From positions 5,084,001 through 5,148,000 of the forward strand of contig OX597824.1 of the NCBI GenBank assembly GCA_951406725.2: DNA of 64,000 bases, in the 5' to 3' direction. The position numbers and the translations under genes are program-made. Below are positions 4,612-43,070 of this stretch, in pieces. The notes under the pieces are model-generated. The model was not told the DNA's origin and did not search any database. It worked only from the letters and a program-made list of their open reading frames with translations. Within the stretch, counting starts at the first letter, position 1; every line of letters starts with the position of its first letter. Source of the DNA: Octopus vulgaris. Its lineage: Eukaryota.

Positions 4612-4938
4612 GCTTGTATGGCAGTGATGCTCATTTACACCCATCATGCAATATCAAGACAAGGACGCACAGACACAGGATGGGCTTTCACCATCCGAGC
4701 GTGATCATTGCCAGAGCAGCTAACTGGCTTCCGTGCCGGTGGCATGTAAAAAGCATCATTCGAGTGTGATCATTACTAGCATCACCTTATTGGCACCTGT
4801 GCCGGTGGTGTGTGAAAAATCATTCGAGCGAGGATATTGCCAGTGTGTGATAGTCATGAGTGCCACTGTTACACTAGTGGTGTCACTAACTTTGTCTTCC
4901 ATGGGAACATGTGCAGCCAGGAGAAAAATTGCCTTTCA

Positions 4939-5312
4939 GGTGCAGGAGTGGCTGTGTGGTAAGTAGCTTGCTTACGAACCACATGGTTCTGGGTTCAGTC
5001 CCACTGCATGGTACCTTGGGCAAGTGTCATCTATTATAGCCTCAGGCCGACCAAAGCCTTGTGAGTGGATTTGGTAGATGGAAACTGAAAGAAGCCCGTC
5101 ATATATATGTGTGTGTGTATGTTTGTGTGTCTGTGTTTGTCCCCCCAACATCGCTTGACAACCGATGTCGATGTGTTTACGTCCCCGTAACTTAGCAGTT
5201 CGGTATAAGAAACCGATAGAATAAGTACTAGGCTTATAAAAAATAAGTCCTTGAGCCGGCTAAAGGTGATGCCCCAGCATGGCCGCAGTCAAATGACTGA
5301 AACAAGTAAAAT
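4939..5312 (+). mobile_element. tRNA-derived SINE family 2, near full length
   Basis: ggtgcaggagtggctgtgtggtaag...GGGTTCAGTCCC head, internal (TA)/(TG) tract, tail tgactgaaacaagtaaaa. Confidence 0.85.
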
Positions 5313-5914
5313 AGTTTCTTGGAAAATGGTACAATAGAATGTTATTGAATGCAGCTACATTGGTGCTTAGCATGTTCTGCAGTCTTCAGGCTTTAGTCTT
5401 TGATATATTTTCCTCTTAGTCTTCTAATTTGTTGCTGAAATCTCTTCAAAGCTTCAATATATTTGATGCACAAAGCAATATTTTTAGATGACATTAACGA
5501 TGTGCCAATGTGTTAAACAAGATGACTATTTAGATGAATGAGCCTTGATGCTGAATTTCTCTATATTTGAAGGACATCAAATTTTGTTGACCAGAGTTGG
5601 TGAAAATGTGAGGAAAAAAGCTATTTAGAAGTGGGTTGTCCTAGATTTGAGCAAGGAACTTTTTTTTTTAATTTATGAAGCCTCTGAAACTACGCTAACT
5701 TTTTTCTTTTTTCTTTTTTTTTTTACAATTAGTTGTAATTTGAGAGATTTAAATGCTATTTTTAACAACTTGATTGCTTACTCTCTATTAGACTGGAAAA
5801 AAATAATGTAATTATTCAGCTTTTGCAAGTTAAATGATCTTGGCTGTTTAAATGGTTTGTTTGGTGCAGGTTTCTTCATGACGAAAGAACAAGATATAAA
5901 ATCATATATAATTG

Positions 5915-6450
5915 ACAGAGCGGCTAACTGGCTTCAGTGCCAGTGACACTTAAAAGGCACCATTCGAGTGTGACCATTGACAGAGCAGCTAACCAGCTTC
6001 CATGCCAGTGGCACATAAAAGGCACCATTTGAGCGTGATCGTTACCAGCATCGCCTTACTGGCACTCGAGCCCCGTACTAGTAGGGTATTAAGAGCACCA
6101 TCCGAGCATGATCATTGCCAGAGCGGCTATCTAGCCTCCGTGCCAGTGGCATGTAAAAGACACCATTTGAGCGTGATCGTTACCAGCATCGCCTTACTGG
6201 CACCTGTGCTGGTGGCATGTGTAAAAGATTCGAGTGAGGTTGTTGCCAGTATCGCCTGACTGCTGGTGACACGTAAAAGCACCCACTACACTCTCGGAGT
6301 GGTTGGCATGAGGAAGGGCATCCAGCTGTAGAAACTCTGCCAGATCAATATTGGAGCCTGGTGCGGCCATCTGGTTCGCCAGACCTCAGTCAAATCGTCC
6401 AACCCATGCTAGCATGGAAAGCGGACGTTAAACGATTATGATGATGATGA
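5915..6450 (+). mobile_element. SINE-like family 1 with internal tandem subrepeats
   Basis: Repeated gtgccagtggca..taaaag.cacc units, then the core and GAT tail. Confidence 0.85.
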
Positions 6451-7048
6451 TCTTCGTCTAACTACTTCTGAAATCTTAGATGCAGTTATTTTCTACTTAC
6501 AGCTCAAATTACTTTTTAGTCGATATGTACAAGGAGCAACCATTAATCATTAACTGGACATTAAAATGATGATATCCAGATTAGTAACTTGCTCTTGTAT
6601 CTTATTGGTAGTTGTTGAATTCCAGGTTGGTCCTGATTGATCTGGCCAATATCTTTTTAAGGAAAATATGAACTATCTTATATATTGTGTCACTCCTGTT
6701 AAGATGGTGGAGTGTGATTTGGCTGGTATTTTTAGCAAGTTGAACTGTAACATAGTTTCTTCAAAGTTTTTGGTGTTTCATTCATAAATTCTCAGTTTGT
6801 CTTGTATGTGTACCTTTTGCAAATTCAAAAGGCTTTAATCTTATTCTTATCCAGACAAGATCCTTGATGAATTTCCCAATGATTTGTAACTGTCCTTTGT
6901 CCAGAGACAAAATCCTCATCTGATATTACTACTAATTTTTGAAACTCTTCAATTCCTTTTCATCCTTACCTATTCTGCTAGACAAGTCTTTAATCTTTCA
7001 CTCTGAGTTCGATATTCTATATTATTTATTTGAAGTTCTTATATATTA

Positions 7049-8315
7049 TTGGGTCATCCCATAAATAATGTTTTTTTTTTTTTCAATTGCGTGAACTAAG
7101 AGTTGGAAGGGGGGAAAACTACCTGCATCAACTTGCTATAAAGAAGGTAGTAATTTTACTTTGTCCTTATTCTTAGTGCAAGTTTTGAAGAGTGCAGTTT
7201 GATTTTAAGTTAATTTTTTCAAAGCTGTAATAGAAGTGACAGATGAGCATATTTGGCATATTTTGCTTTGAGTTTAATAAAGGCAACAATGCAACAAAAA
7301 GTGCGAGGAATATTAATGCAGTTTATGGGGATTGGACAGGAAGCGTAAGCCAGTGTCAACAGTGGTTCCAGAAATTCTGAGCCGGTAACTACAGGTTAGA
7401 AGATGAGCTTCATCCTGGAAGATTTGTAGAGCTCGACAAGGATGTCCTGCAAACCCTGGTGGAACAAAATCCCATTGTAACTGTTGAGGAACTAGCAGAG
7501 AAGCTTGGATTTGGTCATTCAACTATTCATTGACACTCGTGTGCTATCGGAGAAGTCACCAAATTGGGTCAATGGGTTCCTCACAAACTTTCCGAGTCTA
7601 ATTGCGTGCAGAATGAATGTGTGCTCTGCTGTCGTGCTTCACAAATGAACCTTTTTGGAACCGAATAGTGACTGGTGATGGAAATGGTTTTTATAAAAAT
7701 GTTAAGTGTCGAAGACAGTGGGTGGGGAAAGGAGAAGCACTGGCACCCCAGGCTAAAGAAGGTCTTCACTCACATAAGGTGTTATCTGTTTGGTGGGATA
7801 TGAAAGGTTTAGTCCACATCGAACTTTTAAACCCAAACCAAACGATAACAAAGATCTACTGCAAGCAACTTGAGCGGCTTAAGTCAGTGGCAGAAAAATA
7901 AACTACCGCCTATGGTTTCAAGACAAAAGGTGTTCTTCCATCAGGATAATGCTTGGCCACATAGAGCAAGGATGACATTCCAAAGACTGGAGCAGTTTGA
8001 ATGGGAAATGATGCCCCACCCACCATATTTGCTGGACATTGCCCCATCTGATTATCATTTATTCTGCAGTCTTCAAAATCATTTGAACAGAAAAGATATA
8101 AATTCTATTGACGGGGTCAGAACGGTACTGGAGGAGTATTTTCCATCATGGACAAGCAAATTTTGGAAGAGGGGCCTTGCAAGTCTACCAGATAGATGGA
8201 AAAGTATTGTAGAAATGTAGAAAATGGATAGCATATTTTAGGTTAAAAAAGGACTTTATCTTAATTTAGAAAAAATAAAAGTATAAAAAAAACCCATTAT
8301 TTATGGATGACCCAA
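7049..8315 (+). mobile_element. Full-length but decayed mariner (DD34D) transposon
   Basis: TIR TTGGGTCATCC(C)ATAAATAATG at both ends, TA on each side (7047-48, 8316-17), 1267 bp. Frameshifted transposase with RIVTGD, SVWWD, FHQDNAWPH and HPPYLLDIAPSDYHLF; 34 residues between the 2nd and 3rd Asp. Confidence 0.95.
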
Positions 8316-8669
8316 TATATATCCACCTTATTTTTGATATCTCTATCCATGTCCTAAACAAGAGTTCAGCCACCATATTAGGCATGAGATAGCTTTTTTG
8401 GATATGTTGGCTTTCTTCACCTTGATTTTGATAAATGTTGAATCCTTATTTTATAGTTGAAATAATGTACAACGTATGGGATTCATATTTTCAATGTAAT
8501 TTGCCAACATAGAATGTTTGATATTGTGGTTTAGTTTCCCTGTCTCTTCAGATTCAGTTGGAAGTGTTCATTCATGTCTAAACCACTTTTGACTGGAATT
8601 GCTCATTCTTACATAATTTTCTTATTGTATGAACTCTACACTGTTCATTCTTTGAGTCAATGATATCGT

Positions 8670-8945
8670 AATCATCGTTAAATGTCCGTTCTCTATGCTA
8701 GCATGGGTTGGACGGTTCGACCGGGGTCTGGGAAGCCAGGAGGCTGCACCAGGCTCCAGTCTGATCTGGCAGTGTTTCTACAGCTGGATGCCCTTCCTAA
8801 TGCCAACCACTCCGTGAGTGTAGTGGGTGCTTTTTACATGCCACCAGCATGGAAGTCAGTCAAGGTGGCGCTGGCATTGGCCACGTTCGGATGGTGCTTT
8901 TAATATGCCACTGGCACTGGTATCACAGCTACAATTTTCATTTGA
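8670..8945 (-). mobile_element. SINE-like family 1
   Basis: Reverse complement of the family-1 core. Confidence 0.8.
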
Positions 8946-10139
8946 CTTTTTTTATTTTGATGTTGATGAACTTCACTCGCCCCGCAATATATATATATAT
9001 GAATTCAGTTGTATTTTTGCAACACAGTATTTATCATCAGAGTACCATGGCCTAAGTTACTTGAGCTATTGAAAGCTGAATGGTTCCTTTTTGGACACAG
9101 GTCAATGTTATAGATGGAACTGTAACAGATGCACTCCATGTTAGCAAAGTTATTTTTCTTTTTGACTAAACCTCATGCCAGAGTAACTAGCCTTTTAGGC
9201 TATGAGTGTGATTATCAGATAAACTATATTTAATTCACATTTTGCTTCCTTTCAGCATTGTGTCTTTTCCTAATATGCTACAAAAAGCTAATTTATTCTT
9301 TGTGGGAATCCTTATACAAATGATCCTGAATTTACAGAAATCGTCATTAAATTTTAAAGCATAAAGGAAGTCCTTTGGGACGTTAGGCCAACGTCATCTG
9401 CTTCAGGAATAATGGAGCCCTACGTGGTCACTGGAGTTCCTGGAAATAGCAACTAAATTTTTTTTTTTAAATACCGTACTGTTTTAAATAAAATATTATT
9501 TCTTAGATAGCCCATTAAGGATGTATGTTCACGGCTGGGATTCCTTGATTTTTGGGGCTCTCTCCTGTCCAGTTGTTAATGATGTCTACCCCCATCCTTA
9601 AAGTTCCCATTTTATGACCATGATTGGTAGTAATTTTAGTATTTTGAGTTAGAATCCTCTTGTCCTATTTCCTTCTTAAATTTTCGGATGTGTGAGAGAG
9701 AGCTCACAGATCATTTTTATTCGACTATTTTCCACCACAATACTTTGCTAAAGTTAAACAATGAGCATATTCTTTCCTGGCTGACTAACTAAATAAATAA
9801 ATGAAAAACGGTATGCCAAGTGCCATGAAGAAGAACTGGAAGTGGCGTGAGATGGTTCACTCTGAAGAACCAACAGAAACGGCAATTGTAGTAGCGGTTA
9901 CCCATCATCCTTCACCACTACGTCAGTAACTGCTGTTCCATCAATTGACTCTCCTCCCTACTTTACTTCCCTCTCACTGTTTCACTCCAACCCCTCTCTC
10001 TTTCCTCTTACTGTTTCACTCCAACCCTCACTCTCACTCTCTCTATATTCTAAATTGAGGTGTGGTCCTTCTTCCTATAGATAACATTGTAACAGTTTTT
10101 TTCATTTATAAAATTTTATTAAATTTATATTTTAATCAA

Positions 10140-10778
10140 ACACTTCCTCGGATTAATCCTTAATTACTTTATTTCGTCGCTGCTTTCTTGCTCTCGTTAA
10201 TTCGTGTAACCGTATTAAGTGCTACACCCTCGAATTTGCATTGTCTGAGTGTAGCCGCCATTTGCAAATCGCAAGTGTGACAACATTACTACCACCACGA
10301 GAATATTTCCTACCACTATTCCCCTCACTTCCACCTTATTACCAGTCATACTACAATAACCTCCCCCCTCACTCTCTCTCTCTGGTCATTCTCTTTAGTA
10401 CTTCCTCCACCCACCCTTTCTATATCTACTACTACCACCACCCTACTATTACACTATCACTCCCGCTTTCAAGTCATAACGCGGTTACTACTACAATACA
10501 CCGCTTCTTTCCCCCTCTCTCTCGTTTTTAACTTTCTACTCCCACCACCACTACTACATCCACCGTGCAATCTTCTACTACCACTACTACCATCACACCC
10601 ATCTTTACCAGTCAAAATACTGTTACCACCACCATCACCACCACACATCCGCTGCCGCCACCACCATCATCCTTCTATCTACTCGTTCTCTTTACTACTT
10701 CCCCCCACCACTCCCTGATACTATAAGCCATCAGCAGCAGCAATAGTACGGCTGTTGTTGTTGTTGTTCGAGGTGAGT
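10140..10778 (+). promoter_or_regulatory. Candidate promoter / non-coding first exon of RhoA
   Basis: YY1-like GCCGCCATTT at 10254-10263, a C-rich leader-like tract, and a consensus donor GAG|GTGAGT at 10772/10773. The RhoA ATG exon starts at an acceptor, so an upstream non-coding exon is expected. Confidence 0.35.
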
Positions 10779-12445
10779 TCGACTGACATAAAACTTAAAC
10801 CTACTTTACTTAAGTAAGTAAAATTACCTTAATTCCGATCGATTTTTCACTAATAATTCCGTACTTTCTTTCTAATTACCACATCCCATCCTTCTCCCCA
10901 ATCTTTTTGGCCACATTATTGTTTCTTTGATGGTATTACCACTCTATATATACCACAGTATAATACACTTTATATCTATATATACACTGTATGTCTATGT
11001 ATATATATATGTGTCTGTATACACACATACATATATATATATATATATGTGGGTATATACACAATTTATATTATGGTTTTAACTCATTAATTTGTGGTAT
11101 TTTATTCTTAATTTCTCTAATCTGCTTTTTTGATTCTTTTCAAAGCCCAAATGTCGTCGGTGCTTTAATTAAGCCGCATTTTGTGTAATTTAAAAGGAAA
11201 AAAATATTATGATGTCTCTTCTTTGGAACCATATATACCAAAGGATTATTATTATATTTTTGTATTTAATTCCATCCTAGTCCACCTCCCACTCGATTAT
11301 ATATATTTATATCATTCATTGTTTGCACGAATAATACAAATTTCTGTCTTCTTCTTGTTGTAATTAATAATATCCAACGAAGAAGTTTTAAGGTGGAGAA
11401 GATTTCGTTTCCGTTTCTTTTAAAAAAAAAATATTTTCTCTTTTTTTCTAAAATCAGGTCACAAAAGAAAGTGAAGTAAAAATGGATTTCCCAACTGCAT
11501 GATTCTTATTTTTTTCCATAAATTTCTGTGAAATCCTCGAGAAGGAAACAATTAATCAGAAGCGATGAGCTTTTAAAAACTTTTAAGAAACTTATTTAAA
11601 TCCGGTTCGGTTTTTAGAGGCGACTCGGGTTCTTATCTAATTAATTTAACCCTGATTCATATCCAATATATTCACCTCCATCCGTTTGTTTAGCTTTAAA
11701 TTAGATTTTTAATTAGGAAAATAAGAAAAAAAAAACCGATTCATTGTTTTGCTCCGAATCGGTTAAAACCTATGACTAAAGGAAATCCAATGTGACCATC
11801 CCGTTTTTACTTCATATCTCTTCAGTGTAATTTGGACTCTTAACCACTTTTATTTTCTGAAATGCTTGGGCGGAGACATTTAGACAGTTTATGTAATACA
11901 ATATTACCTAATGTCTCATTTTAAAGACAAGAATGTAGTTTGATGGGTATAGGGTTGCTATTTCTAGCAGGTCGTGGCACAGAGCCTCTCCCTCTCCATT
12001 AAGCTTTGCTATTTCATCATGAAAAAAAATATCCTAATTCACTTCTATATATTTCCTCGTTCCTTCTCTCATATTCTCTCCAATTTGTCATTAACTAAAG
12101 TACCATACATCATTTTACGCTTCTCATTAAACTCTCGTGAGCTTTATCTCTTTTATTAACCATTTTTCAGATGGTTTTTTTTAAAACATCCTTTATTAAT
12201 TTACTCCGACCTTTTTTCCCCCTTTTTTTTTTTCACTTCCAAATTTTCAATTCTTAAGCCAGGTTTTAAACGAAGCCACATATGTTTATATATCGTTCTT
12301 CTATTTCATTTCTGTGCTTCAAGAAATCCTGCTGCCAGTAGAGATTTCTGCCTTTTTAACCTTTGCTCCATTCCGTCCTTCCTGGCTGTCATTTTCTCCT
12401 CCATCTTAGCTTTCTCTGTTAAGCTTTATATACGTGGTATATACA

Positions 12446-12480
<35 letters not shown>

Positions 12481-13199
12481 GTATGTATATGAAATATGAA
12501 TTGTAGATAAAACCACTGTTATGCAACTCAATTTGATCTCTAATGCATATTTTATATATTTATACTGTGAAATTTGATTTAATACTAAATTGAATTTTTC
12601 CCTATAAGTTTGGAGTTATACTCCCTAATATTATTATTATTATTATATATATATATATGTGTGTGTGTGTATATGTATATATATTCTCCTTTGTAAGTTT
12701 ATCGTTAATTTCTTTCTAATGAAAATGGGAAACTTATAGGACAGGTATGTCATGTGTGCGCCTACGTATAATATAACTTTGCTGCACACACATCTTCCAT
12801 CTGAATAAAATAGTATGGCGTTTAAATTATATCTCGGTATGAGGTTATGAAGTGGAGATAGGATGTGAAATTGATGTAGGTGGTGGTGGAAATAAGTTTT
12901 TAAGGCTGTGATTATTTCTTTTCCCCCTTAAAATTTCGTGAAGCTGACTGCTTTAGTGAGGTAGTTTGGGAAAGAAAGCTCTGTGTATGTCTGTATGTGT
13001 GTGAGTGTATATCTATATATATATGTGTGTGTGTTTGTGGGTGTGAGACAATTTGTGAGTGAGACGGATATCGTGCATCGTAGATGTATATCTATATCCT
13101 TATATTTGTATGTAGGTGTGTTTGTGTGAAATTGTTTGCGAGTTCTAATATCTAATGTAGATCTTGTGTGAGTGAGTGAGAGAGACAGAGTGAAGAGTG

Positions 13200-13440
13200 A
13201 AGGGGGGGCTCTGCTGTTGCTTGTCATCGCGATCGCCATTTTGCTTTCAGCCCAATTTCTTCTCTTCCTCCACTTCCAACAGATGTAACTTACATAACGG
13301 CTTTGCTGCATTCTATAATAAAAGATAACCGTCTAAACCTATCTTCTACCTGTGTAAATCACAACACACGGTACCCCACGAAGCTGTATCGAATCGCTTA
13401 GGCGCTGTAATTCGAACGTTCTCAATGAACCGTCCTCAAT
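13200..13440 (+). promoter_or_regulatory. Second candidate promoter / 5' UTR region
   Basis: YY1-like CGCCATTTTG at 13234-13243 in a locally CpG-richer segment after a GT/GA tract. Confidence 0.3.
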
Positions 13441-16400
13441 CCCGTTTTCCTAATATATAATAAATATTTTCCCTTTCGCATTTCTATTTGCCACCATTTT
13501 CTCTTAATCTTAATATTTCAGAAATCATTTCGTAAAATGAAAATCCATAACCGAAAATTATATCATTTTAAGAATAAGTTTGGGGGGGGGGGAGAAAAAA
13601 ATCCTACCGCCCTGTTGCCCCCCCCTCTCTTATCATGGATGTGTCACTGAATTCTCTTTTGCTTCTCTTTTTCTAACTTTGAAGTGGAAAAAAAGTTAGT
13701 GTGGCCGTTCTTTCCTTTCTTTCTTTCATCACTGACCCACGATCGAGAAGGAAGGAAAAAAAAATCTACGATTATCTTGGCTGACATTAAAAAAGAAAGA
13801 AGAAAAATGTCAATTCTTAATTCTAATTTCCGTTAAATAGTCTCTAAAATGACGGGAAATCTTCTCTTTGTATACATTAATTACATCGATCCTAAAAAGA
13901 AAAGTGTCTGTATATAATATATAAATATATATTTTGGCGATTTGCCTATATTTTAATAGTATTGAGGGTATTTTTGATATCTGGTTGTCTCCAGGTGAGC
14001 CCCAATGGAGTGTTTCCTTACGAAAGACATTCCAACCATGAGCATCCCTCTTTCTGTGTATTTAGTCTATAACTGCCTGACTTCTTTTTAGTTGTTGTTA
14101 GCTTTGGATTTGCGAGAAGGTTTGACTGCTATTTCCAGCAGGTCAGCCTTACACGTCGAGTCTTCCTCTTCTCCTCCACCCCACCCCCCCACCATTCGTT
14201 TGGCATGTGGTTGTAATTAAGGTTTTTTTTTTTTCATTAATAATGTAGTTAAGATATTATTACTCTTCTACTAATAAGTGTGACTAATGAGTGAATGGCC
14301 GACCAAACTGTTGGTTAATACAAATTGCCCTACAAACTGGTTCCTCGGTTGGTCGTCGCTGTTTAACAAAGTGCCCCACCCAAACTGGTCGCTTCTTGCT
14401 CGTATAACCTAGCTTTTATGGCTGTTGCTTACTCTTTCCCCCCCAGCTTCTTCTCTCTTTCTCTCCTTAGAAAAAAAATCCTTTTACTTTTCCACTGTTT
14501 TTAATTAAAACCATTAATTACATTCGTGTGCGCGCATTCAACGTAAAAAAATTTGCCCGGTTTTTTTTTTTGTCTTTTTTTTCTTTCAGGAGGAAATTCT
14601 TTTACTGTCAGCTTTAATTATAATGGAGTTGTTTTAGCCATGGGTCATCTCTGATTAAGCAGACTTATGATCTATATAACATTCCAGCCATGACTGTCCC
14701 TTTTTAGTAGCAGAGACTCTCTCTCTATATATAATCGAATGTGTCATTTCCTCCTTTTTATTTTTTAATTTCTTAAAGACTACAGTAATTTCAGGAAGAT
14801 TTGGATGTACAGCATCCAATTGTAGCTGATGGAGCCTAGTATCTTCCTCATTGCTTCAGCAATGGACGAACACTTTCTTTCCCATTACTGGTTTTGCCAT
14901 CCGTTTTTCCATCGTCGCCATCTGTGCTGACAGCTGTATGATGATATGATAGAATGTGTGTATAAAATGTCCATTTTTCCCCATGAAAGAAGCTTATATG
15001 CAATATATTATGTGGTGCTGTGTAGTCTCTGTCTTTTTAAAGAGAGCTTGGCACCATCCATATTGCTTTGAATATCATGGCAACTCCCTTGATTAGTAGA
15101 GTTCTTTCCACAGTGTAATAATAATATATATTGACGGTTAATAAATTATCCTCTTTGCTGCATATTCATTGCTTGAATGATTTCCTTCTACGAGACACAC
15201 ACGATTAATAATGTATGTACGGTGGTCATCTTTGTTGATTGTACTTGTTGATCAAATAATCATTCACCCCCCCCCCGTTTGTCATTCAAAACTATTGTTT
15301 TGTCATGAGAATTTTTTCACACGAATTGACACAGATTTGTGAAATCATTCCTGTCCCTTGAGTACAGGATTTTCGTTGCCTGCACACTCGCACCACTGTC
15401 CTAATCAAACTCTTAAATACTTATTCAAGATGCTTTATTAAAAGCGAAATTAACGAATTACATAATTGTGTTGTGCATTTTTGAGAATGCAATCTTGTAT
15501 CAGCAATCCTTCATAAACTCTTTGAACCTTCTCACCTGTGTTTAGGCTGTAATAAGGTTTAATTCCCTGTTATAATCCCTCAGTTATTTAACATTGAGTT
15601 CCTTTGTAATATATTTCGAATAATGGCAAACAATCCATTGTTTGCCTTCCCATAGCTTTCGTTTTATCTTCGTCGTCGTCCCCCACAGAATTGGTTCCTA
15701 TTTATAACTATAAAATAACCTACAAAAAATAAAAATTACGAAAAATCAGGGTTGCTTTTATTTCAGATTTGTTAGAATTTGACATTTGAAACTTGTAATA
15801 TCGGCAAATATTTCCTAATGCATTCAGTTCTTGCTCTCTTATTGCTCTATGACTGTCAGCTCATGATTCATCGTTGAGGTCACTCGTTTCAGGTTGACCT
15901 TTCTGTAAGATGTCAGACTTTCTGATGATTTAAAAACTGTTAAGTCTGTTACTGAAGAAGAATCAGTTTTACTTAGATTTAACAAAAAACAAACCCGATA
16001 CTATAGAGAACAAGGAAAAGAAACCCTTTACTATAAACGATGCTGGTTCAATATCCATTTGCCCCCAAATTCACTTTTCTTTTCGTGGTAAATCTAGTTT
16101 GAGGCCGATGATTCCAGATTTAAACGGCTCCCTTTCTTAAACAGGGTCTAATCTTCAGTGATATTGAATTCTAAAAAAATGACTTCATTGTTTTATACTA
16201 AAGGCTACCATTTCATCAGTTCCCGTTCGTTTTATGGTGGGTTGGATGGGTCTTCATCTTACCATTTCTGTGGCTCTTTATCAGCTCCTGTGTAAAGGCT
16301 CAGCCTCAGATCTGCTTTCACCATTTCCTTTGTCTTCCTTGTTATTCCTCTTCTGCACATTCTTCCCACTTGGATCACTTGGCACTTCCATTTACCATTC

Positions 16401-16533
16401 TGTCACTCTGCACATCACATATCTACTGGCTTTGTCTTTAATGTTTTTTAAATATTATAACCCCCTCCTCTCCAATTACCACCACCATCCCAATTTACTG
16501 ACACATTACCATTCTTAAATTTCTAGTTTTTAA

Positions 16534-16761
<228 letters not shown>

Positions 16762-19700
16762 TAACAGTGCCACCAGCAATGGTGTGCATGCAAATCAGTT
16801 TTTTTTATCCCTCAGAAATATATCATTTTGATATCATTTTGATATTGGAGACAGCCATATTTCTTTTGAATTTTGACAATTTGGTTTGCAGACAATGTTT
16901 TTTTGTTTTTTTTTTCTTTTTGTCGCTTCTGTTTCCAATATTTGTTCATGTTCCTCAGCCGTTCGTACACTTTCCAGTCAGAATATCAATTGGTCATGTT
17001 TTTACGGAAGGACGAACTTGCTTGTATTGATATTTCAATTTATGTTGAAATTTTAGGGATGTATATATAAGAACATATTCTAGTCCTTCTTTGAGATATA
17101 CTTTTCCAATGGAGTCACCTTATTTTCCAAAGGATAGTATGATTATATATTGGAATAGTTTTTTTTATTTTTTCCCATTGTTTGAAACCTATCTGTTCTG
17201 TGGTTGACATTGTATACATCCTAAATGCAGGATGAGATCTTAGACATTCAGTATGTGTGCAATTGTCATTTCAGGGTGTTGTTTTATCATGTCAAAATGA
17301 ATCTTTTATGCGTTCATTTTTTTTTCCCCTTCCACATATTGCAAAAGTGAATCCACTTTGCCTTTTTTCCTTTTTGGTTCATTGTGTAAAGTGGGGGGGA
17401 AAGTGTTTTTTGTTTTTTTTCAATGAATTATGAAATGGATTTTGTTTTGCATCTTTTGTTCATAAAAGAAAAAAAAACATACTGAGGGTAAAAAGAAAAA
17501 AAAATGGTGTGCCTAGGCTGGTTTTATCGTACTGAAGAATTTAGTTGAAATCGGTTACACTTTTGGTATTTTATATTTCGTTCTGTTTCACTTTTATAAA
17601 TATTTGAGCAAAGTCTTCTTTGCAACATCGAATTTTCAAACACGATCCACCTAGGGATGAAATAGTTAAGGTGACCTGTCAGCATTCCCAACTGAAGCTA
17701 CAGTCGTGTCCAGGTAAGCAACAATTGTAAATTTAACTGCATGTGATATTTTATTAGATATTTTAATTGTACTTAGAGTGAATTTTAGGTTTTTTTAGTA
17801 TTCTATCAAAATACCTGACAAGGGAGATGCATGCTGTTTCCTGTATTTAAAGCACTGTGATGTTGCCTTGCTTATTCCGAGTTGTGAATTATTGAGAAAC
17901 CTGGGATCTAGTCTTCTACTTCAGTTAAAGTTCTTGAAATATCCGGCCAAAGAGGAAATTGTTACAATATCCATATTCTTTACCATTAAACTTTGAAGTA
18001 TCAAAGGAAAATGTATTGAAGTTCCAAATGCCTTTTTTACTTTTAATGAATCCTTGGAATTCAGTTAGAATTCTGTCAACAAAGTATTCAATTATGAATA
18101 ATTAAGAATCTTATTCTAATTTAAGATTACAGATGAAATTGTAAAATTATTTGCAAAACTAAAATGAAAATCAAATATTGTATTCCTCTTCCTTGGAAAT
18201 CAAAATTACCGGTTTTCTTTGCAAGCTGGTAGCAACAGTCAAAGATCATAAAACTTGGAATCTGTCTACATTCCTGATCACATCATAGTCCTCTGTGGTG
18301 CTAGTCTTTTGTACATCCAGGTGCAATCCACAGATGTATTGTTCCAGATACTACATGCTCCTCCTAGTGGAGGGAATCATCCTACAGTGCAATTAGGTAC
18401 GAGTTTGAAATAGCCTGAAAGTTGGGTGTTGCAAATCTAGGAAGACATAGATTGATTCTACATGACAATTTCTCCTATTTCAATGAAACCATAGTATCGT
18501 ACAGGTTGTAGTTGGACTCCAGGTGAGCATAATTGTTACAAAATAGTTGCTTCAATGCTTTCTAATGACTTTTGAAAAGCTTTTTAGTTCAATTCTAAGG
18601 ATGATGTCTTCCCTGCCAACTGCTTTTTATTTTATTAATTTATAATTTTTTTTAATCAGTATCTCAGGTACTGTGAATTATCAGGTTTACTGCTTCCTTC
18701 AATTTGCTTGACCTGCTTTTCTGTCAATTTAAACAATTTTGTTATAATTCTAACAATTTCCAATGCATTTATTGGTATATTGAGTTGGTGTTTGGAACAC
18801 TTGTTGTTTTAGTTCAATGAAACTAACTGTTTAGCTACTAATGACATTTTGTTAGGGAACACTCTTGATATGGTATCTCAGGTGGTCAGGTGTTGTGAGT
18901 GATGACATGACTCGTGTGCAGTTGATGTTCAGGTTGGGTTTCAGTTGGTTTGATAGTTGTAAGGAAAATGAATAGGGAGACGATTCTAGAGGGTTGCAAT
19001 TCTGGGAAGGAATGATTGGGGCACAATGTCTAATGTAGGCTTTTGGCGTGAGGAATGGTGAGGGTGGCAGCTAATTTAGAGATGCTGCTGCTTCTGAGGA
19101 GATAAAATCAGAGTAAATTCTCTGCCAATGGTTGTCTACCATTTTTAATGTTTAGTCTCAAGAATGCCTTGAGGGTTGAAAGCAGTTAAATCAAGTAGAA
19201 CTGTCTCTACTTTTGATTTTGAAATATAAAAGGGATATATAATTATTTTTGGGAGGAAAAGCATCTTTCTTTTCCAAGGGCAGTTTCTAAATTGCAGTTT
19301 TAAATATAGTTATTGATTTAGATTATCTATTAATATTTCTTAAAACTTGATCAAATGTGGCATGAACTTTTAATCTTAAGATTTATTCGTATCTCATCTG
19401 TAAGATAAAAACATAACTTTACAATTAAATTATTTTAAAATGCTTTATATAAATTGTGTGTGAACAAATGGTTATGATTTTACAAAATTTTAAAGTGTTT
19501 CTACTGTAGAAACCGAAATGTGAATGCAATATGCAATGAATTCAAGACTCTGGTTTATGTAATCAGCAACATATACACTTGAAATGTAGTTTGCTTCTTA
19601 TATAGCCATAGTTCAATCAATGAAAGCTTTGTAAGTGAAATTTGCATGATAGAAGAAAGTACAGAAGCCTATTGTAAATTATTTCAAGATTTACAGACCC

Positions 19701-23021: not shown

Positions 23022-24880
23022 TTAAGCTGCTTGTCTCATAAATGTGAAGCTAAAGTAAATATTTACTTCCAAATTTATTAAGATTTGCTGAGTGAAGCCG
23101 TCCTCTTCTGCCAGCTAATTGGTGCATTCACCTTTTTCTTTGTTTGGAGAAAGGTAGATTATTGCCCACGACCATTGTATGTCTACTGGTCTTCATGCTG
23201 GCAGAGGGTCAATGTTTGGATGAGAAAGTGGGTAGAGATGTGAACTCAAAAGATTGGTGGCAGGGTGTCCAAAGAGAGGACACTAGCTTTTAGGAACAGA
23301 GGCCATTTTAGTAGTGAAGACAACAAAGAGACAGCCTGCTTTTGTGCTGGAGGGTGGAGTGGTGCTAGTGTTTGAATAGTTATTAGTTGTGATTTGTATC
23401 TCTTCTGTGATTCAGGATGTAAACTTTCTTCTGGAAAATGTTTCCTTTTTTCTTTCTTAATCTCAGAAGTCTTAGTTAAAACCCAAACTAGTTAGCAGTG
23501 ACTGATTTAGAAATAGTTCTAAACATAAGATCTTTTATTAAAGTTGCTGTGAGTATATGGTTTCACTGAATGAATATTAAGAGATTCTATCCTTAAAGGT
23601 TCATAAGTTTTAAACAAATTCCAGGAATGGTATTTTGAATGGATTCATCTTAGTTGCTCTTGGGTCTGCAAGGAAACTACTTGTCTTCATGATTTATTAA
23701 ATATTGAAGCTATAGTAAAATGAATCTTTGTGTGTATGATGAAGTTTGGAGCTACGGTATTTACTACTTTGATGGTATTTAAGTGAAATGCATTAACTTG
23801 GATTAATTTACTCCTCATAATGCCATTTGATAACGGACATGCTTGTTATTGCAAATATGCAATTTGTTACTTTAATCATAATTCACTTTTATTGACCAGA
23901 CTTGGGTGTTCTTATACAACATCGGTCACAATATGCTTCCATTTTTCTCTTGATTGGACTCAAATTGTTTCGTTGTTTTTCCATTGTCTTAGAGGCCTTC
24001 TGAATGGTTCTCGTCCCATCTCTTGGCGTCACTTGATAAACTGCGTGGGTTCACCTGTTGTCTTGTGACACATCTATCCTTGTGCAACTTGTTTTCGGAA
24101 TAATTCCATGATCACATTGTCCACTCCGCCCTTTTCTTTGAATTGTTTCGGATGTGTTCCCACAATGATATTCCTAGTATGGATCTTCCCTTGGCTCTCT
24201 TCTACAAGATATTTGCTAATTATGAGCAAATAGATTGCTATTTTTATTGGAAATTTCATTTTTAGATGCAGACAACTGAATATTTCGTACATGGATTGGA
24301 AATAATTTCGAATGTTGTGTCTATAAACTTTTTAATTACATTGTTCAATAGCAGGAAGCTAATTACAAAATTAGTGTTGTGAGTCAGGAAAATTTTTTCT
24401 TTCTCTTTTTTGTTTTTGCAAAAGTTTAGCAACTTAAATTCTGGAAGTTTTTTATTTATTTATTTATTTTTTGAGATTTTAAGTGTAATTGTTTTGTATT
24501 AGATGTAACATAGTAATTGTAATATAAATACTGAACTGTATTGATGAAATTGTAGTTAACGTTTAAACTGTAAGATTGTGTAAGTTTATAATGTAAAATC
24601 TTAGTATTTCAAGTTTTACAACTGTCACTGTCTCCTTCCAATCTGTTCCCATTCCCTCACACTTGTCCATACTTATCTAGCATCGCCTTAGGACCCACCC
24701 AGTTGCTCCCTTTTCTTAACTCATCACTAATCCCTTCCTTATCTCTCTGCCATACTTTCCTCCCATTAGTGATAATTACTGTTGCTTTCTCTATAAACTT
24801 TATCCTAACTGTTCATCTTGTCCTCCCTCTTCCCACTGTCCAGAACTACCACCCACCTTTCTCCTTCAGTTTAAGGGGCG

Positions 24881-24974
24881 AATTACAGCCATATAAAGCT
24901 GATTGCACCTTGTCTCGCCTGATCACCGAAGTGAAGCAATGTCGAGCCTGCAGGGTACTTAGATGGGTGACCGT
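24881..24974 (+). pseudogene. Degenerate, 3'-truncated 5S rRNA sequence (probable SINE head)
   Basis: tacagccata...tctcgcctgatcaccgaagtgaagcaatgtcgagcctg...gtacttagatgggtgaccg aligns by eye to metazoan 5S nt ~4-98, including the A and C boxes. No 5S 3' end or T-run terminator. Confidence 0.85.
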
Positions 24975-25145
24975 ATCCATGCAAATTATGAAGTGATCTT
25001 AATGCTGGTGACATGAAAAGCAACCAATACACTAAGTGGTTGGCATTAGGAAAGGAATCCAGCTATAGAGACCATACCAGACATTGAGCATGTTACAACC
25101 TATCGAACTAACCAGCCCATACCAGCAAGGAAGCTGGATATTTAT
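24881..25145 (+). mobile_element. 5S-headed SINE (SINE3-like) with family-1 core
   Basis: 5S head followed within about 30 nt by atgctggtgacatgaaaagca...agtggttggcattaggaaaggaatccagctatag. Confidence 0.6.
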
Positions 25146-26035: not shown

Positions 26036-26301
26036 TCGCTTTCTTACAAATACTCAAATTTATTTGCTATTAAAATTTGATCCAGTGGACATAAATTTTA
26101 AGTTTCTTTTCCTGCTCTAACTTTGCCAGCAACAAATTTGATGTTAAATGCTTTAACTTTTTCAAAATGAATTGTCAGTCAATGTGGCACTGGTTTAGTT
26201 AATTAACTTGTTTCATTTTTGCTGTCTTTGATTAATGCTGAAATTTGTCTGTTTCGAAAATAAATTCAATCCTTTTCTTTCTTTTTTTTCTTAAATTTCA
26301 G

Positions 26302-26724
26302 GTGGAATTGGCTTTATGGGATACAGCAGGTCAAGAGGATTATGATAGATTGCGACCGCTCTCCTATCCTGATACAGATGTTATATTAATGTGTTTCTCT
26401 ATTGATAGTCCCGACAGTTTAGAGAACATTCCAGAAAAGTGGACACCTGAAGTGAAGCATTTTTGTCCTAATGTTCCCATTATATTAGTTGGAAACAAAA
26501 AAGATCTGCGCAATGATGAAACTACACGTCGGGAATTGGCCAAGATGAAACAAGAACCTGTAAGAGCTGATGATGGCAAAGCAATGTCGGAAAAAATTGG
26601 TGCTTTCTCATATTTAGAATGTTCGGCCAAAACTAAAGAGGGGGTTAGAGAGGTGTTTGAAACGGCAACCAAAGCAGCTTTACAAGTCAAAAAGAAGAAA
26701 AGAGGAAGATGTATCTTGTTCTGA
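26302..26724 (+). CDS. RHOA: RhoA terminal coding exon A (codons 53-192, ends [11 protein letters not shown])
   Basis: Long pyrimidine tract then ttcAG|GTG at 26301/26302. Open 423 nt with WDTAGQE, NKKD and ECSAK motifs, a CaaX box and TGA stop. In phase with the first coding exon. Confidence 0.95.
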
Positions 26725-28615
26725 AAAGGTGGTGATATTTTTATAGTCTGTGCTGAAAGAAGGTCTATCCTATTTCTGTGTTTCTCTTGGCATTTTCAGT
26801 TGTCCATTGTTCTCGTGTGTGCAACTGTTTTTTCCTGAGAAATCTCTCTTCATACTACTGCAATGACTTGAAATTCTGGCCAAAAACAATTTGCAGCTTT
26901 TGTACTATTAAAAGATGGTTTCCATAAATGCAACTGTTTCCATTATTCTCCTTAAACACGTTGCTCTGTAATTGGTTTCATCTCAAAACACTACTAGCTA
27001 TGATTTTGCTATGGTAAATTAAATCAGCACAACCATTGCTGTTGATTGCAGTTTCTTTTTTTTTTTTTCCTTAAATTTCAGAAAAGTGAGCAGAGCTCAT
27101 TTTTGTATAAAAACAAACAAAAAAAAATGAACCCGTTCAAATATTATTGCTGGTACTACTATATTTCAGCTTTTTGTTGTTAAATAAACGTAATAGTGCT
27201 AATGAAGGCTTGGAACATCCTGATCACCGGGCATTGAGAAAATCTGCTGGATAACAAAATTGAAGAAACTTTGTATAACTTTTTATAACATTAAATTCCT
27301 CTTCTGGTCTTTGCCATTGATGGGATTCAGGAATATATTTTCAATAAATATTAATAGTATATAATGGATCAGTTTAAGTTGCAATAGAATTGGCATTTTT
27401 ATTTCTTCACTTTTCTTTTTTTTTTTTTTTTTAATTTTGACATCTCTGGTTTGTCTTTGCTCTTTGTTTACTTATTGAAGAAAAGTAAACCTGTTGAGCC
27501 TTACTCGAAAGTTTCTAGTTGTGATTGAACCTGAAGCTTTGGTTGAAATATATCTAGTTCCCATTTGATTAATACTCGTAATCTCTTTCAAAACATAATT
27601 GATAATTTCATAGCATTATTCATTTAATCATGCTGTTCCCCTCTGCATTATTTTTTTGGACAGTTCTTGTGCATAATGGCCTTAGTGCCTTAAAAAAATT
27701 TGCTACTTAAATAATACTGAAAAGCTTTTCTTTTTTTTCTTTATAATATGGCTGCTGGAACTTCTATTTTCTGGATTGCAACATTCTGTTAAATTTAGAA
27801 TAAAGTTGAATTTGTCTTCCTTGTAAAGCAGTTTTAATTTATGGATTTTGGAAATGAGAAATAGCCTAGTTTTTGTGGATAGGATGCGAGAAAGTATAAG
27901 TACCTTAGCTAAAAATTAAACCATTATATTGCCACTTGGCATTTCACTACAGTAATATCTATTTTAAAATATTGCTAATTTTTTACACAGCGCTCCGTTT
28001 AAACTGTTAAGTTTTTCTTAGAATACTGCATGTATTAAGTCATCCAGTTATTTGTGTTCACATCTATTTTGTTTTAATCTCAAAGTTGTCTATTAAACGT
28101 ACAAGGACGCAAACCTAAGTGGCAGATAAACTTTGAATATGTTGGTATTTTCCAAGTTACAGGTGTTGCATTCCTTTGAAATTCTTGCTATAACGTGGAG
28201 CACTGTGGTGCAAAAGTCTTGTTTTTTGGAATATCACACAATGGCAAGGTTTTCAGGAATGCATTATTTCTGTAACGTGGAATGTTTGCAATTTACGATT
28301 CTTCCCCCCCCTCACTTCAAATCTTAGATAAATGGTAATTCCGATGCCATTTAGTGTTGAAATTTGGTTTCAGTTTCAAGTGTGGGATTTGGAGGTTTTT
28401 CTTTCCATATTTTCTGTAGTTTAATTTGAATGAAGATCTAAAACATTGTTTGTTCTCTACTGTGATAGTACTCGATAGTTAATGGACCAAATGTTGATAG
28501 CTTTATATTCCAGCGTTGAAAAAAAAAAAACTTGTGACACATTCCAGTATGTCATTTTCATGTTTAATATACTTACAATGTCGATAAGATTATAATTTCT
28601 GTATCATGTGCTCCA

Positions 28616-28660
28616 AATAAAATTCTGGCTGATATCCAAGTTTTGTCTGTTTTTTTCACT
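28616..28660 (+). terminator. Candidate poly(A) signal for isoform A (3' UTR about 1.9 kb)
   Basis: AATAAA at 28616-28621 followed about 20 nt later by GT/T-rich gttttgtctgtttttt. Other AATAAA at 27183, 27343 and 27799. Confidence 0.5.
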
Positions 28661-29498
28661 TAAATGAACCATTTGACTCTCATTAGTCAAACATTTTTTT
28701 TTTCTTCTCTAGAATGTATTAAGTGGGGGTGATATTTGTAATTGCTTAATAATTAAAATATTTTTTTTTCAGCTTCTAAATTTTTGCTAAAATCTCTCAT
28801 GTGAGATATAGGAAATACAATAAAATATCAACTCATAAATTTTCCTTTTTGAAAAATGAAATTCATATCTTTACGAAGCTAAAGGTTCTGAGAATTTTGC
28901 AGTCACTTAAATCCTATTGAATCTTAGTGCTTAAAATTTAGATTTTAGTTATTAGCTATTCTCAATATCTAACAGTATTATCAAAGAAATTATTTGGTGT
29001 CGAAGTTCAAAACTGTATTGCTGATCTGTTGTCCATTGATAACAACTGAGAAGACAGCATGAATAAAGTACAAGGTTGGTATAGCACAGTATGCTAATTG
29101 AATTTTCAGTTAAGTACTACAAAATTAGTAACCTAAATGCATAGGATACTGCCCATCTTTTTTGTTTTATATTTATTATACACTTTTCCTATATTGGCAT
29201 GGATTGGATGGGCAAGTTGGTTCTTATTCAGTTACTTGCTCTCTTTTTAGAACAGGTTGGAATCGGGTCACTCTTGCACCTTCCATTTTTGGCATCTTCT
29301 GCTCTTCCTATTGCCAATCAGTCTGCAGAATGTACTCTGGGTGCATTTTGTCATGGAATCACACTCTGCCTAATTTTTCTCTTTATCCAGCGGCAGCGGT
29401 AGAGGATTGTTTTGTCTCCAGCAGGTAGAAGAGATATCAGAATTATGGAAGACGACACTTGATAGGAGGGGGTGATAGCAGAAAGAGTAAGATGAAAT

Positions 29499-29705
29499 AT
29501 CATCATCATCGTTTAACGTCTGCTTTCCATGCTAGCATGGGTTGGACGATTTGACAGGTCTGGCGAACCAGATGGCTGCACCAGACTCCAATCTGATCTG
29601 ATAGTGTTTCTACAGCTGGATGCCCTTCCTAATGCCAACCACTCCGAGAGTGTAATGGGTGCTTTTATGTGCCACCGGCACAAGGGCCAGTCAGGTGGTA
29701 CTGAC
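29499..29705 (-). mobile_element. SINE-like family 1, between exons A and B
   Basis: Same signature as the 25664 copy. Confidence 0.85.
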
Positions 29706-30799
29706 TCTATACAGTTAGGTCAGTTAATTTATTTATGCAGTAAATACATGCTTGAGCATTTTTGATGTATAGGGTGGACAATGAAAGCATTGCAAACTAT
29801 AAGCCATCTTAGTACTTTATTTGCCGAAATAGAATTAGATTAAGTTTTTAAAATACATTCTTATTTGAAAGAATACAATTTTTTTTTCTTTTCTGTAATA
29901 TTTTTGTAGCTGCTTTGGAGTTTAAAAAGCAGGAAGGTGTTTTTTTTTTCTTTTTTCTCTTCAAATTCTTGTCTTGCTGCTTGTATTTCAGTTTTTCTAT
30001 TTTTTAAAATTTTAAAGTCAGTTGGTTGTAAAGTTCATAGATCACAACATAATCTAGAAAAGTTACTGAACATTGATCTTTTCACACATTTAAATTTTAA
30101 AAAGTTTTATAAATACTGGGTGACTTATTCTGATTATAATCTCTCAGATTATAACCTTATCTTTAAAAGCGAAAGTATTTTTAAAAATATTTATATGCAC
30201 ACCATTGATCAATTTGTCAGCCTGTTTTAACGTCCCTGGGTGTGTTACATAGATTGGATTTTAAACTAGCAATCATTATTTAGGAACCAAGGACAAATAT
30301 TCTTATCCCGAAGGCCCCACATAATGTAGGTACTAAATTATAATCCTATTTTCATCTATATTAATATGAAAACATTGACTTGCTAAATTTAATTCAATTT
30401 TTCAAGGTTAGATTAGGGGTTGTGGGATTAGTAATAGAATGTCTACTTAATTTCACTCCTTTTGTTCTCATCACAGGTCTGTTAATCCTTTTGGTATTAA
30501 GCCACTTCAGACCACTTATTTTTAAAGTGATATGAATGGAAACCTTCCATCAAAATTTCATGTTTTGTTCTAAGCACCAGCTTAATGAGGTTTTTTTTTT
30601 TTTTTTACTAAATTCCTTCATTTATTTTCAAAATTGAAAGACTATTCCAATTATAATAATAACCAAAAAACAAAACAAACCTAGTTTCATATTTCCAAAA
30701 TTACATTATTTTCTAATAGCTGAGAATGCTAATGTTTGTATTAATAATTTTCAATGTTTTAGGAATTATTTAATTAATGATTTGAATTTTCTTCCTTAG

Positions 30800-31222
30800 G
30801 TTGAATTGGCTCTTTGGGATACTGCTGGACAAGAAGATTATGATAGGCTACGACCTTTGTCTTACCCTGACACAGATGTGATTCTTATGTGCTTTTCTAT
30901 CGATAGTCCAGACAGTTTGGAAAATATACCGGAGAAGTGGACCCCTGAAGTGAAACACTTTTGTCCCAATGTTCCTATCATTTTGGTCGGCAATAAGAAA
31001 GATCTACGAAATGATGAAAATACAAAGAGAGAACTTATGAAGATGAAGCAAGAACCGGTACGACCTGAAGACGGTCGTGCTATGGCTGAAAAGATCAATG
31101 CCTATAGTTACTTAGAATGTTCTGCTAAGACCAAAGATGGTGTGAGGGAAGTGTTTGAAACAGCTACTCGGGCAGCACTTCAAGTAAAGAAGAAGAAGAA
31201 AGGAGCCTGTACCATGTTGTAA
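30800..31222 (+). CDS. RHOA: RhoA terminal coding exon B (codons 53-192, ends [11 protein letters not shown])
   Basis: ttttcttccttAG|GTT at 30799/30800. Open 423 nt with the same G-box motifs, CaaX CTML and TAA stop. In phase with the first coding exon. Confidence 0.95.
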
Positions 31223-32441
31223 TTTGGACTCGCATCAATTTTTCTCATTCTTTCCAACTTTTTCCTCTCCCCCCCCACTTATGTATCCCACTTACAACAA
31301 AGAAAAGGAAACTTTTTTTTTTCAAAACATGCTTTTTGTTACAAAAAAAAAGAAAAAAACTTGCTGCTTTCTCCAATGTTCACAAACTTAGTCCACTTTT
31401 TGCAGATATCTAATCTAAATCTAATCAATTTGATTCACTGATTTTTTTTGCAAGTCAGTTTGAACGAGATGATAAAAATTATAAAAAAGAATATATATAT
31501 ATGAAATTATATTTAAAATGAATTTAAAAAAATAAAAAATGTTTGTATGGACACGTGGACTACAGATAGGTATGTGTGTGCATGGTTGACTGGTTTGTAT
31601 GTCTGTAGATACATAAAACGAAATTGTTCATGCTGCTATTGGCATCATGCTCAACAGCCTTTTCAATATGCATTCATGAACCCTTTTTCTTACTCTTATG
31701 CTGGTATTCATTCCTGTTTTGCATAACATTTTATTTCAACATTTTTTTTTTTTTCATTTGCCATTGGTTATAGTTAAACTGTTTGTATTATTATTATTAT
31801 TATTATGCCAGTATTTTTTTCTTATCGTAACAAAACGAAAGTAAATCTGAATGAAAAAAAACAAACAACTTAATCTCTCCTTGAAGTATCGGAGAGATAG
31901 TAAACCTGACCATTGTAGCTAAATTGTGTGCTGGTATCTTCCAACATTGAAGTATTATTTTTCTAAGTTAGAATATTTTCTGCCGCCTTATTGCTCATCT
32001 GTAGCTGTCTTCAGGTATCTGTCAACTGCAGTACTTACTAGATACAGAGACCAAAATCATTATTTTAAACCACATACCTGCTTTCCGTCATAAATGTATT
32101 TGGATGAATGGATTAAAACTTCTTCTCTAGGTAGCTCTCTGGAATGGTGTTACCTTTTTGTCAGACAGCTTTATCTACATCATAAAGAAAGTCTTTCATC
32201 TTCAGCTGTCACTTTTTAATGATATGGTGAATATAATTTGGCAGATTTTTTTCTTAAGACTTAGTTATTTCACCTTTATTGAACTAATATTATTAACCCT
32301 AATAAAATATCGACTGATGAATGGATTCACTGTTCTTTATTGTATAAAGACTGGCTGCTTCTTCAGTGATATGACAGGTTTTTAATTCTTTTAATTTTGT
32401 CTGATTTTTATATCTGACTGGTCCTAATTTTTTTTTAATGG

Positions 32442-41759: not shown

Positions 41760-43070
41760 TGGTGAATTTAAAAATAAACAGTCAAAGGGAGGTAACTATA
41801 CTTCGCCACTAAAAATAAGAAAAAAAAGCATCAGGTTTTTTTAATGAGAAATCTCCTTATAAATCACATGACCTTAGTAAAACTCTTTGGTTTGTTATTC
41901 CACACGGAAAACAAATTAAAAGTAACCTTCCTTACCTGTTTCGTGAAGCCATCGAATGGAACTTCCCCCCAAAATTCCAGGTACCATTCGATTCTCAACT
42001 CACATCGTATCAGAATTGGCTTCTCCAACTCTAATAACCTCCAACAAATTATATCTTCACACAATAACTATATTCTTAACGGTAAAAGGATTTCGTTTAA
42101 TAACTGTAATAATAATAATAATACTGACGATAACCCCCTCCTTAAATAATAGTATCAATAGTAATATTACTTGTAATTGCGGTCCGAATAAAACTTGCGT
42201 TCTCAACGGAAATTGCAGAATTAAAAGCGTTGTTTATCAATGTGAAGTTTCCTCAGGATCTGAGGAATATGTTTATATTGGCATTTCATCCACGGAATTA
42301 AAAGAACGTTTGGCCAACCATCTTTCTACATTTAAATATATTCATAAACGTAATACTACAGGTCTTAGTAAACTAATTTGGCATCTCAAAGACTGTAATA
42401 AACTAGATGAGTACAAATATCCATCAAATGTAAATACTGTTAATAGTGTACCTAATTCCTCATCTCTCAAATATAGAACTGAATTTTCTTTGGATTGGAA
42501 AATTTTGTCAAGATCATTTCCCTATGATAAAGGGAAATCTTTTTACTATCTTTGCACGGAAGAACAACTATTTATCCTTTTTTTCCCAAATATACAATGG
42601 TCAACACTTATAAAGAATGTGTTCACAGGTATTTACATTGGAAAAAACACTCTTCCAGCTATTTCAAATAATACCTGGCCCCTTACCTAATAATATCTGC
42701 AACTTACACTTTACTCTTTTCATCCCATACATCCCATTCTTTCCTTCATCTTTTCTATTCATCTGCCATTCATCTTCTTCAAGTTTATACCTCAGTTACT
42801 CCTTTAATTCTCTTTCTCTCTTCCTTCTCTTCTTCTCTCGTCCTATGACGTCAAATTTCTTAACTGTATTTTAAAATTACTAGCGTTCCCTATCCACCAT
42901 TCTTTTCCATATAATTTATATATTGTAGTTTCTTACATCTGCGAAAATGGTTTATTGATGATCACTGATGTTTATAATCTCCTCCTTGATGAGGTTGATG
43001 CATTTTCCCACATTATTCTTCCCCTTGGATTTATTTTAATGCATCAATAGAAACATATGTCGGTAATATG
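41760..43070 (+). mobile_element. Penelope-like retroelement, 3' part (RT thumb + GIY-YIG endonuclease), frameshifted
   Basis: ...RIGFSNSNNLQQIISSHN, then CNCGPNKTCVLNGNC..SVVYQCEV..YVYIGISSTELKERLANH..GLSKLIWHLK..WKIL..LCTEE. Hammerhead-like motif at the 3' end. Confidence 0.85.
42981..43065 (+). ncRNA. Decayed minimal hammerhead ribozyme motif
   Basis: TTGATGA (C3>T), stem II gttgatgcatt/aatgcatcaat, GAAA-CATATG-TC with palindromic stem III. Stem I is weak. Confidence 0.55.

Follow-up and report, generated by a model that had tools for sequence, protein, structure and literature searches.

Two homologous terminal exons in the RhoA gene of Octopus vulgaris, a likely source of two full-length isoforms

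GENE STRUCTURE AT THE LOCUS

RhoA is a driver of cytokinesis, of cell shape and of neurite retraction; work on mollusc and worm models (Aplysia, Octopus, oysters and spiralian embryos) usually takes it to be a single protein. The stretch of DNA considered here, referred to as the window, comprises 64,000 nucleotides of Octopus vulgaris (contig OX597824.1, positions 5,084,001 to 5,148,000) and holds a gene of the RhoA/Rho1 subfamily in which one shared coding exon is followed by two intact, homologous terminal exons, A and B, all on the forward strand. Taken jointly, the evidence makes it likely (we put the probability at roughly 0.8) that this arrangement yields two full-length RhoA isoforms and goes back to a duplication that preceded the split of molluscs, nemerteans and annelids.

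The shared exon (exon 1; 16559–16728) carries an ATG at 16573, encodes residues 1–52 with the P-loop and switch I, and ends in a phase-0 donor (CAG/GTAAGT). Exon A (26302–26724) and exon B (30800–31222) each encode residues 53–192; both are 423 nt long (140 codons and a stop), begin in phase 0 and have a polypyrimidine tract and an AG in front of them. The stop codon of exon A is followed by four further nucleotides (26725–26728) and then by a donor (AAAG/GTGGTG), from which an A-to-B splice lands exon B in the 3′ untranslated region (UTR) of A. Candidate AATAAA signals past exon A stand at 27183, 27343 and 27799.

Searches of the 2.8-Gb genome returned exon 1 as a single strong copy (100%, E 3e-28), the next matches (50–64% identity) being other Rho-family genes. 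The terminal exon was found in two copies, both at this locus, and the remaining matches were more distant Rho-family genes. The presence of one exon 1 in both window and genome argues against two separate tandem genes, a reading that has been applied to a pair in the oyster, of which the second member was described as having an incomplete G2 loop and hardly any expression (PMC4669188). The related view that exon A is a pseudo-exon, or an artefact of assembly or haplotype, has to contend with 17 sequencing runs that each contain at least half of the words sampled from 26200–31400.

THE ENCODED PROTEINS

Exon 1 contains the GDGACGKT P-loop (G1) and a switch I effector loop (YVPTVF) of the RhoA type, and G3/switch II, G4, G5 and the Rho insert are present in both terminal exons. 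The alignment with human RhoC/RhoA is free of gaps (RhoC 53–188, E 5e-78), the identical protein of O. bimaculoides scores 184 bits with Pfam Ras, and proteins identical to the window exons are recorded for Octopus vulgaris, O. sinensis and O. bimaculoides. The gene is like other members of the RhoA/Rho1 subfamily (human RhoA/RhoC; Aplysia RHO, P01122) in all G boxes, in switches I and II, in the insert and in the CaaX box, but differs from them in that 73% of the protein is encoded by two probably alternative exons.

Switches I and II are common to A and B, and the differences between the two forms are concentrated in residues 126–160 and in the CaaX tail. Across 21 same-species pairs of A and B copies (the rotifer being excluded because of an indel), the mean number of differences was 0.05 in residues 53–103 and 10.8 in residues 126–160. 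With boundaries taken from human RhoA, residues 126–160 presumably correspond to the Rho insert helix and the helix that follows it. Tail A carries the CaaX box CILF after six basic residues and tail B carries CTML after five; in other species the A tails are also more basic, and variable, and the B tails mostly end in GG-C-a-a-L.

DIVERGENCE AND CONSTRAINT OF EXONS A AND B

An initial annotation, made from the sequence alone, had proposed on the basis of a hand count that both exons are old and under strong constraint. Its counts were found to be exact: 40 of the first 73 codons differ between A and B with 0 amino-acid changes, and 16 of 140 residues differ overall, with no indel and no internal stop. 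Over the whole exons 85 of 140 codons differ (18/11/78 differences at the first, second and third codon positions) and the proteins are 88.6% identical. The near-saturation of synonymous change that it had noted was also borne out, as 30 of 43 four-fold sites differ (0.70), where third-position composition predicts 0.72 at saturation. Nei–Gojobori counting (NG86) gave proportions of synonymous and non-synonymous differences of 0.87 (pS) and 0.092 (pN), and a pairwise fit of the Goldman–Yang codon model (GY94) gave dN of ~0.07 and omega <0.01, with twice the log-likelihood (lnL) difference at 233 against omega = 1. In this fit dS was unbounded, values below ~7 being more than 2 lnL units worse; since synonymous sites are saturated, dS cannot date the duplication, the age of which was taken from other species.

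The flanks of the two exons (1 kb upstream, 2 kb downstream) had been described as without visible similarity, and indeed blastn between them returned short, mostly poly-T/A matches, the longest being 51 nt at 73%. Further evidence for constraint on exon A is that the protein of O. bimaculoides RefSeq isoforms X3 and X4 is identical to it; in a DNA run of a second organism, both of the two base changes listed in exon A are synonymous.

SPLICE JUNCTIONS IN CONTIGS OF PRESUMED RNA RUNS

Contigs on 26180–26900 were examined in three presumed RNA runs (X2, X6 and X9, of which X2 and X9 come from different studies) and in one DNA run (X17); runs X18–X20, whose word shares are 0.05–0.08, count as no evidence. 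Splicing joins the shared exon to exon A: the exon 1–A junction occurs in two of the three presumed RNA runs (X2 and X9), where loose ends at the A acceptor match the end of exon 1, and it is absent from the DNA run, which has the whole stretch in one piece. The depth of the exon 1–A contig is ~1900, as against ~5 for the unspliced intron. Run X6 also starts at the A acceptor, and its listed loose end comes from a minor alternative donor in intron 1 (17681–17713; CAG/GTAAGC at 17713); a single contig, 841 letters long and of low depth (3.8 versus 92), joins this donor to exon A. Simple extension of exon 1 to 17713 brings an in-frame stop 11 codons past residue 52, and the form using this donor is possibly unproductive, ending in a premature stop.

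Splicing from A to B was found in X2 (one of the three runs), in which a loose end behind 26730 matches the start of exon B, and was not seen in X6 or X9; it is through this junction that the B acceptor is observed in use. In X2 the connector contig has a depth of 711, compared with 1434 for the read-through, whose 3′ UTR was examined from 26729 to 26900 and is continued in a contig of X6 for 2636 letters past 26900, unaligned. It counts against the case made here that the RNA status of these runs is a guess of the index and that contig depth reflects level poorly. With exon A joined to the single exon 1 in RNA contigs, and with dS saturated at a dN of ~0.07, the reading of the locus as two separate genes, or of exon A as a pseudo-exon or artefact, is already contradicted for Octopus and we consider it very improbable; the dismissal of a haplotype artefact or pseudo-exon in the initial annotation thus stands.

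The same contigs bear on the annotation of this gene in RefSeq and GenBank, according to which the real product is a fused double protein of 320–345 amino acids composed of exon 1, a truncated A and B. Models of this kind exist for Octopus vulgaris, O. sinensis/bimaculoides, Sepia and ~20 other genera, but the donors that they require (26643 and 26685) are without loose ends in the three presumed RNA runs, and the A–B splice that is observed lies past the stop of A. The position of the junction also varies among the models (114, 116, 117, 128, 132 or 141 residues), the last A residue of the Biomphalaria fused model conflicts with a separate A record, and an intact polybasic/CaaX tail of A is found in every species with an A end on record. 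A genuine fused protein is, in our estimation, hardly credible, and the ‘double’ Rho models of 306–486 amino acids in about two dozen spiralian genera (P0121, P0154, P0156, P0136, P0239–P0255 and others) are probably a propagated gene-model error.

PROPOSED MECHANISM

In the mechanism that we propose, the shared exon would be joined either to A or to B, the choice being made through competing 3′ splice sites and polyadenylation after A. Transcripts containing A would end after A or be spliced on to B as 3′ UTR, and the two isoforms would carry two different 3′ UTRs. Under the 50-nt rule for nonsense-mediated decay, the exon 1–A–B mRNA, which would code for protein A, is expected to escape decay because its stop lies only 4 nt before the last junction. 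An Rfam scan of 12000–40000 found no structured RNA that might regulate the choice between A and B, the only hits being sub-threshold microRNA matches on AT-rich or simple repeats. Splicing of exon B to the shared exon is likely and is predicted for Octopus; that the gene yields two full-length RhoA isoforms is likewise likely, with isoform B and translation being predicted.

As switch I, switch II and the G boxes are common to A and B, both are predicted to use the same guanine nucleotide exchange factors, GTPase-activating proteins and core effectors. The two forms would differ, through residues 126–160 and the polybasic/CaaX tail, in membrane targeting and in secondary partner contacts. The A/B pair is real, and there is a high probability that it is functional. 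With the same switches and a different insert helix and tail, the two forms would make a question of long standing, the role of RhoA/B/C-type divergence outside the switches, testable within one gene.

THE A/B LAYOUT IN OTHER SPECIES

In 24 spiralian genera, models of 306–486 amino acids contain the part from residue 53 onward in two or three copies behind a single P-loop; these genera belong to cephalopods, bivalves and gastropods and include a chiton, a nemertean, an annelid and a rotifer. Separate isoform records that have the N-terminus in common but end differently exist for Mytilus galloprovincialis (X1/X2), Argopecten (X2/X3) and Lingula (X2/3 versus X4/5), and separate B isoform records for Mytilus, Argopecten, Lingula and Aplysia. 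When the 21 pairs were compared with 24 outgroup rows, M132 was present in 21/21 B copies, 1/21 A copies and 0/24 outgroup rows, and R140 in 21/21, 5/21 and 5/24, respectively; the A copies mostly keep outgroup-like states (not M132, and K140 in 16/21). In all 21 species B is on average closer to the B of other species than to its own A, and the mean difference between species per 128 is 6 for B and 15 for A. On these comparisons exon B is the slowly evolving, conserved form, of the Aplysia RHO (P01122) type, and exon A the fast-evolving, presumably specialised form.

In a 70-row tree all 22 B copies lie on one side of a branch, together with Lingula X5 and Trichoplax (Shimodaira–Hasegawa-like approximate likelihood ratio test, 88), and the A/B label changes once on the tree as against 15 times in shuffles. 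A single-clade test on the 70 rows was uninformative because the free search was suboptimal, and it was replaced by explicit constraints on 49 rows under the models LG+G4 and LG+C10+G4; the 21 rows dropped comprised long branches, near-duplicates, and the Didymodactylos, Physella, Dreissena, Mercenaria and C. angulata pairs. Independent duplication was rejected by the approximately unbiased (AU) test per species (p 4e-5/7e-5 for the two models in that order), per class (0.0013/0.0013) and per phylum (0.011/0.006), and a B-clade constraint was not rejected (0.39/0.62). The initial annotation had suggested a tree in which A and B copies form separate clades as a means of dating the duplication; the B copies do group across phyla, but the A copies were not recovered as one clade. 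We hold with good confidence that the pair had a single origin before the mollusc classes split, and regard an origin before the split of molluscs, nemerteans and annelids as probable, if less firmly so. The duplication is far older than the initial annotation was able to say. The splits among these lineages are more than 500 My old, and it is likely, as predicted from gene models, that spiralians with the same layout have made two RhoA proteins from one gene for that length of time.

Several observations weigh against a single origin. Sister A and B clades are borderline (AU p 0.079/0.035), the alignment has only 128 columns and rates are unequal; the position of Trichoplax among the B copies in free trees indicates that slow evolution may pull B together, and a constraint uniting A and B of cephalopods withstood testing (p 0.66, for a tree whose search was poor). 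In scallops the middle copy, which apparently derives from B, already has K140, so that R140K can recur, and a second Rho of Dimorphilus also has M132/R140. Eight metagenome loci (L017, L019, L021, L023, L027, L029, L030 and L032) show exon 1 and an intron followed by a single M132-type exon, the contig carrying no second copy, and the layout is therefore not universal; similar doublings in models of echinoderms, cnidarians, insects and fish are lineage-specific, so that the exon evidently duplicates repeatedly. In addition, the other species are known from predicted proteins rather than DNA, and the sorting of the Lingula isoforms into A and B went by resemblance.

These points would suit a history in which the same two-isoform mechanism arose several times, per class or phylum, from a near-frozen B-like exon, with the free copies drifting to similar residues. 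The absence of an A clade, the fact that sea stars, cnidarians, wasps and fish have each doubled this stretch independently, the recurrence of R140K in the scallop third copy and the existence of single-exon loci all favour it. Set against it are the rejection of per-species, per-class and per-phylum constraints under two models, the upstream position of A in 22/22 pairs with its retention of outgroup-like states, and simulations under the per-class tree, in which 0/20 came near the observed lnL difference of +80 (a weak test, with fixed topologies). Repeated origin is thus unlikely, though of the alternatives it is the one to be taken most seriously, and a single origin of A and B is preferred.

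Scallops apparently have three terminal exons: one of type A, one that is younger and derived from B, and B itself (P0368 of Ylistrum; P0125/P0131 of Argopecten; P0254 of Mizuhopecten). Outside Spiralia, similar models with one N-terminus and two copies were seen in a sea star, a coral, a hydrozoan, a wasp and a bichir, the last RhoB-like (P0261, P0263, P0170, P0264, P0262/P0373/P0374); they are lineage-specific where tested, and some have identical copies, which may be duplicates of the assembly or of whole genes. The intron between residues 52 and 53 seems to be a recurrent point of duplication. Among the 45 of 80 metagenome loci examined, none had two copies on one contig. One metagenome contig (L044:1009–2649) has exon 1 and, 1.07 kb further on, a mussel-like A-type exon, which matches the A-first order; it has no donor directly behind the A-type stop, and B is absent from the 2.7 kb that remain.

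COMPARISON WITH KNOWN SYSTEMS

The Octopus gene is a case of substitution derived from tandem exon duplication, of the kind known from KRAS4A/4B and CDC42, with use of the exon 1–B junction being predicted. In those genes, as is likely in Octopus, homologous tandem 3′ exons provide a single small GTPase with two C-terminal ends that differ in their membrane-targeting tails, and the alternative last exons of KRAS are conserved over 450 My (PMC9882654, PMC8373072, PMC9741552). In KRAS and CDC42, however, the swapped exon is short and confined to the C-terminal end, whereas the Octopus exon makes up 140 of 192 residues, including switch II, and its first 73 are identical between A and B. The Octopus gene differs further in the extra A–B splice that puts B in the UTR of A, and in being an invertebrate case of independent origin. 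Judged from the sequences, it would be unusual for its kind in that 73% of the protein is swapped and half of the swapped part is kept identical. RHOA does not appear in a published list of 3′-spliced members of the RAS superfamily (PMC9882654).

A literature search (subscription journals being outside its coverage) turned up no paper that describes alternative terminal exons of RhoA for molluscs or for Spiralia, the nearest account being that of CgRho-1 and CgRho-2 in Crassostrea gigas. The two are ‘repeated in tandem’ with Ka/Ks of 0.15 and Ks of 1.53, and were interpreted as a gene duplication that is specific to oysters and absent from scallops, one of the copies being defective (Li et al. 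2015, PMC4669188). Because Crassostrea models show one N-terminus and two copies, CgRho-1/CgRho-2 are very likely the same A/B pair, and the two or three copies carried by scallop models contradict the absence from scallops. In Schistosoma mansoni, SmRho1.1 and SmRho1.2 lie 7 residues apart, mostly in the C-terminal half, and have different partners (SmHDAC8 versus SmDia; PMC8670706). Unlike A and B, these are called recent paralogues, differ also at residue 33, have the same CaaX and are not shown as alternative exons. That so few changes accompany different partners makes it plausible that A and B have also diverged in partners, although the comparison is no test of A and B.

An alternative first coding exon lies ~17.2 kb before the window and ~33.7 kb before exon 1 (L015:1492–1528). 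It consists of an ATG, 12 codons plus 1 nt in all, and a GTAAGT donor, is in phase with exon 1, and gives a 17-residue N-terminal extension with a cysteine that is annotated in O. vulgaris and O. bimaculoides. Short cysteine-bearing N-terminal extensions of RhoA also occur in mussels, scallops, a chiton, a nemertean, beetles and hymenopterans, and we take them to resemble N-terminal palmitoylation signals; the literature search found no account of them. It is a tentative idea, to which we give slightly less than even odds, that all of this amounts to a spiralian-wide RhoA switch of Cambrian age, overlooked ever since the first cloning of rho (from Aplysia), in which a frozen B and a fast A, combined with the conserved cysteine-bearing exon, would give four RhoA proteins that differ in their membrane anchors at either end, achieving by splicing what vertebrates did with RhoA/B/C. 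For practical purposes, knock-downs, probes and expression counts need exon awareness, and about two dozen public fused Rho models of 320 amino acids are probably wrong.

OTHER FEATURES OF THE WINDOW

Blastn against plasmids gave no match, and exact look-up of three pieces of open reading frames of the window gave none in the collection searched. A segment at 24880–25000 resembles, by eye, what we presume to be a decayed 5S rRNA copy, and Rfam returned no 5S match at E<=0.05. A dispersed family of repeats resembling short interspersed nuclear elements, with a 148-nt core, has copies at 8724, 25725, 29556, 36339 and 38778 and inverted copies near 564 and elsewhere; of these, one lies a short way ahead of exon A and another separates A from B. 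Lastly, a 247-codon open frame is found on the forward strand at 41947–42690, and our impression is that it resembles a decayed, retroelement-associated segment of the GIY-YIG type.

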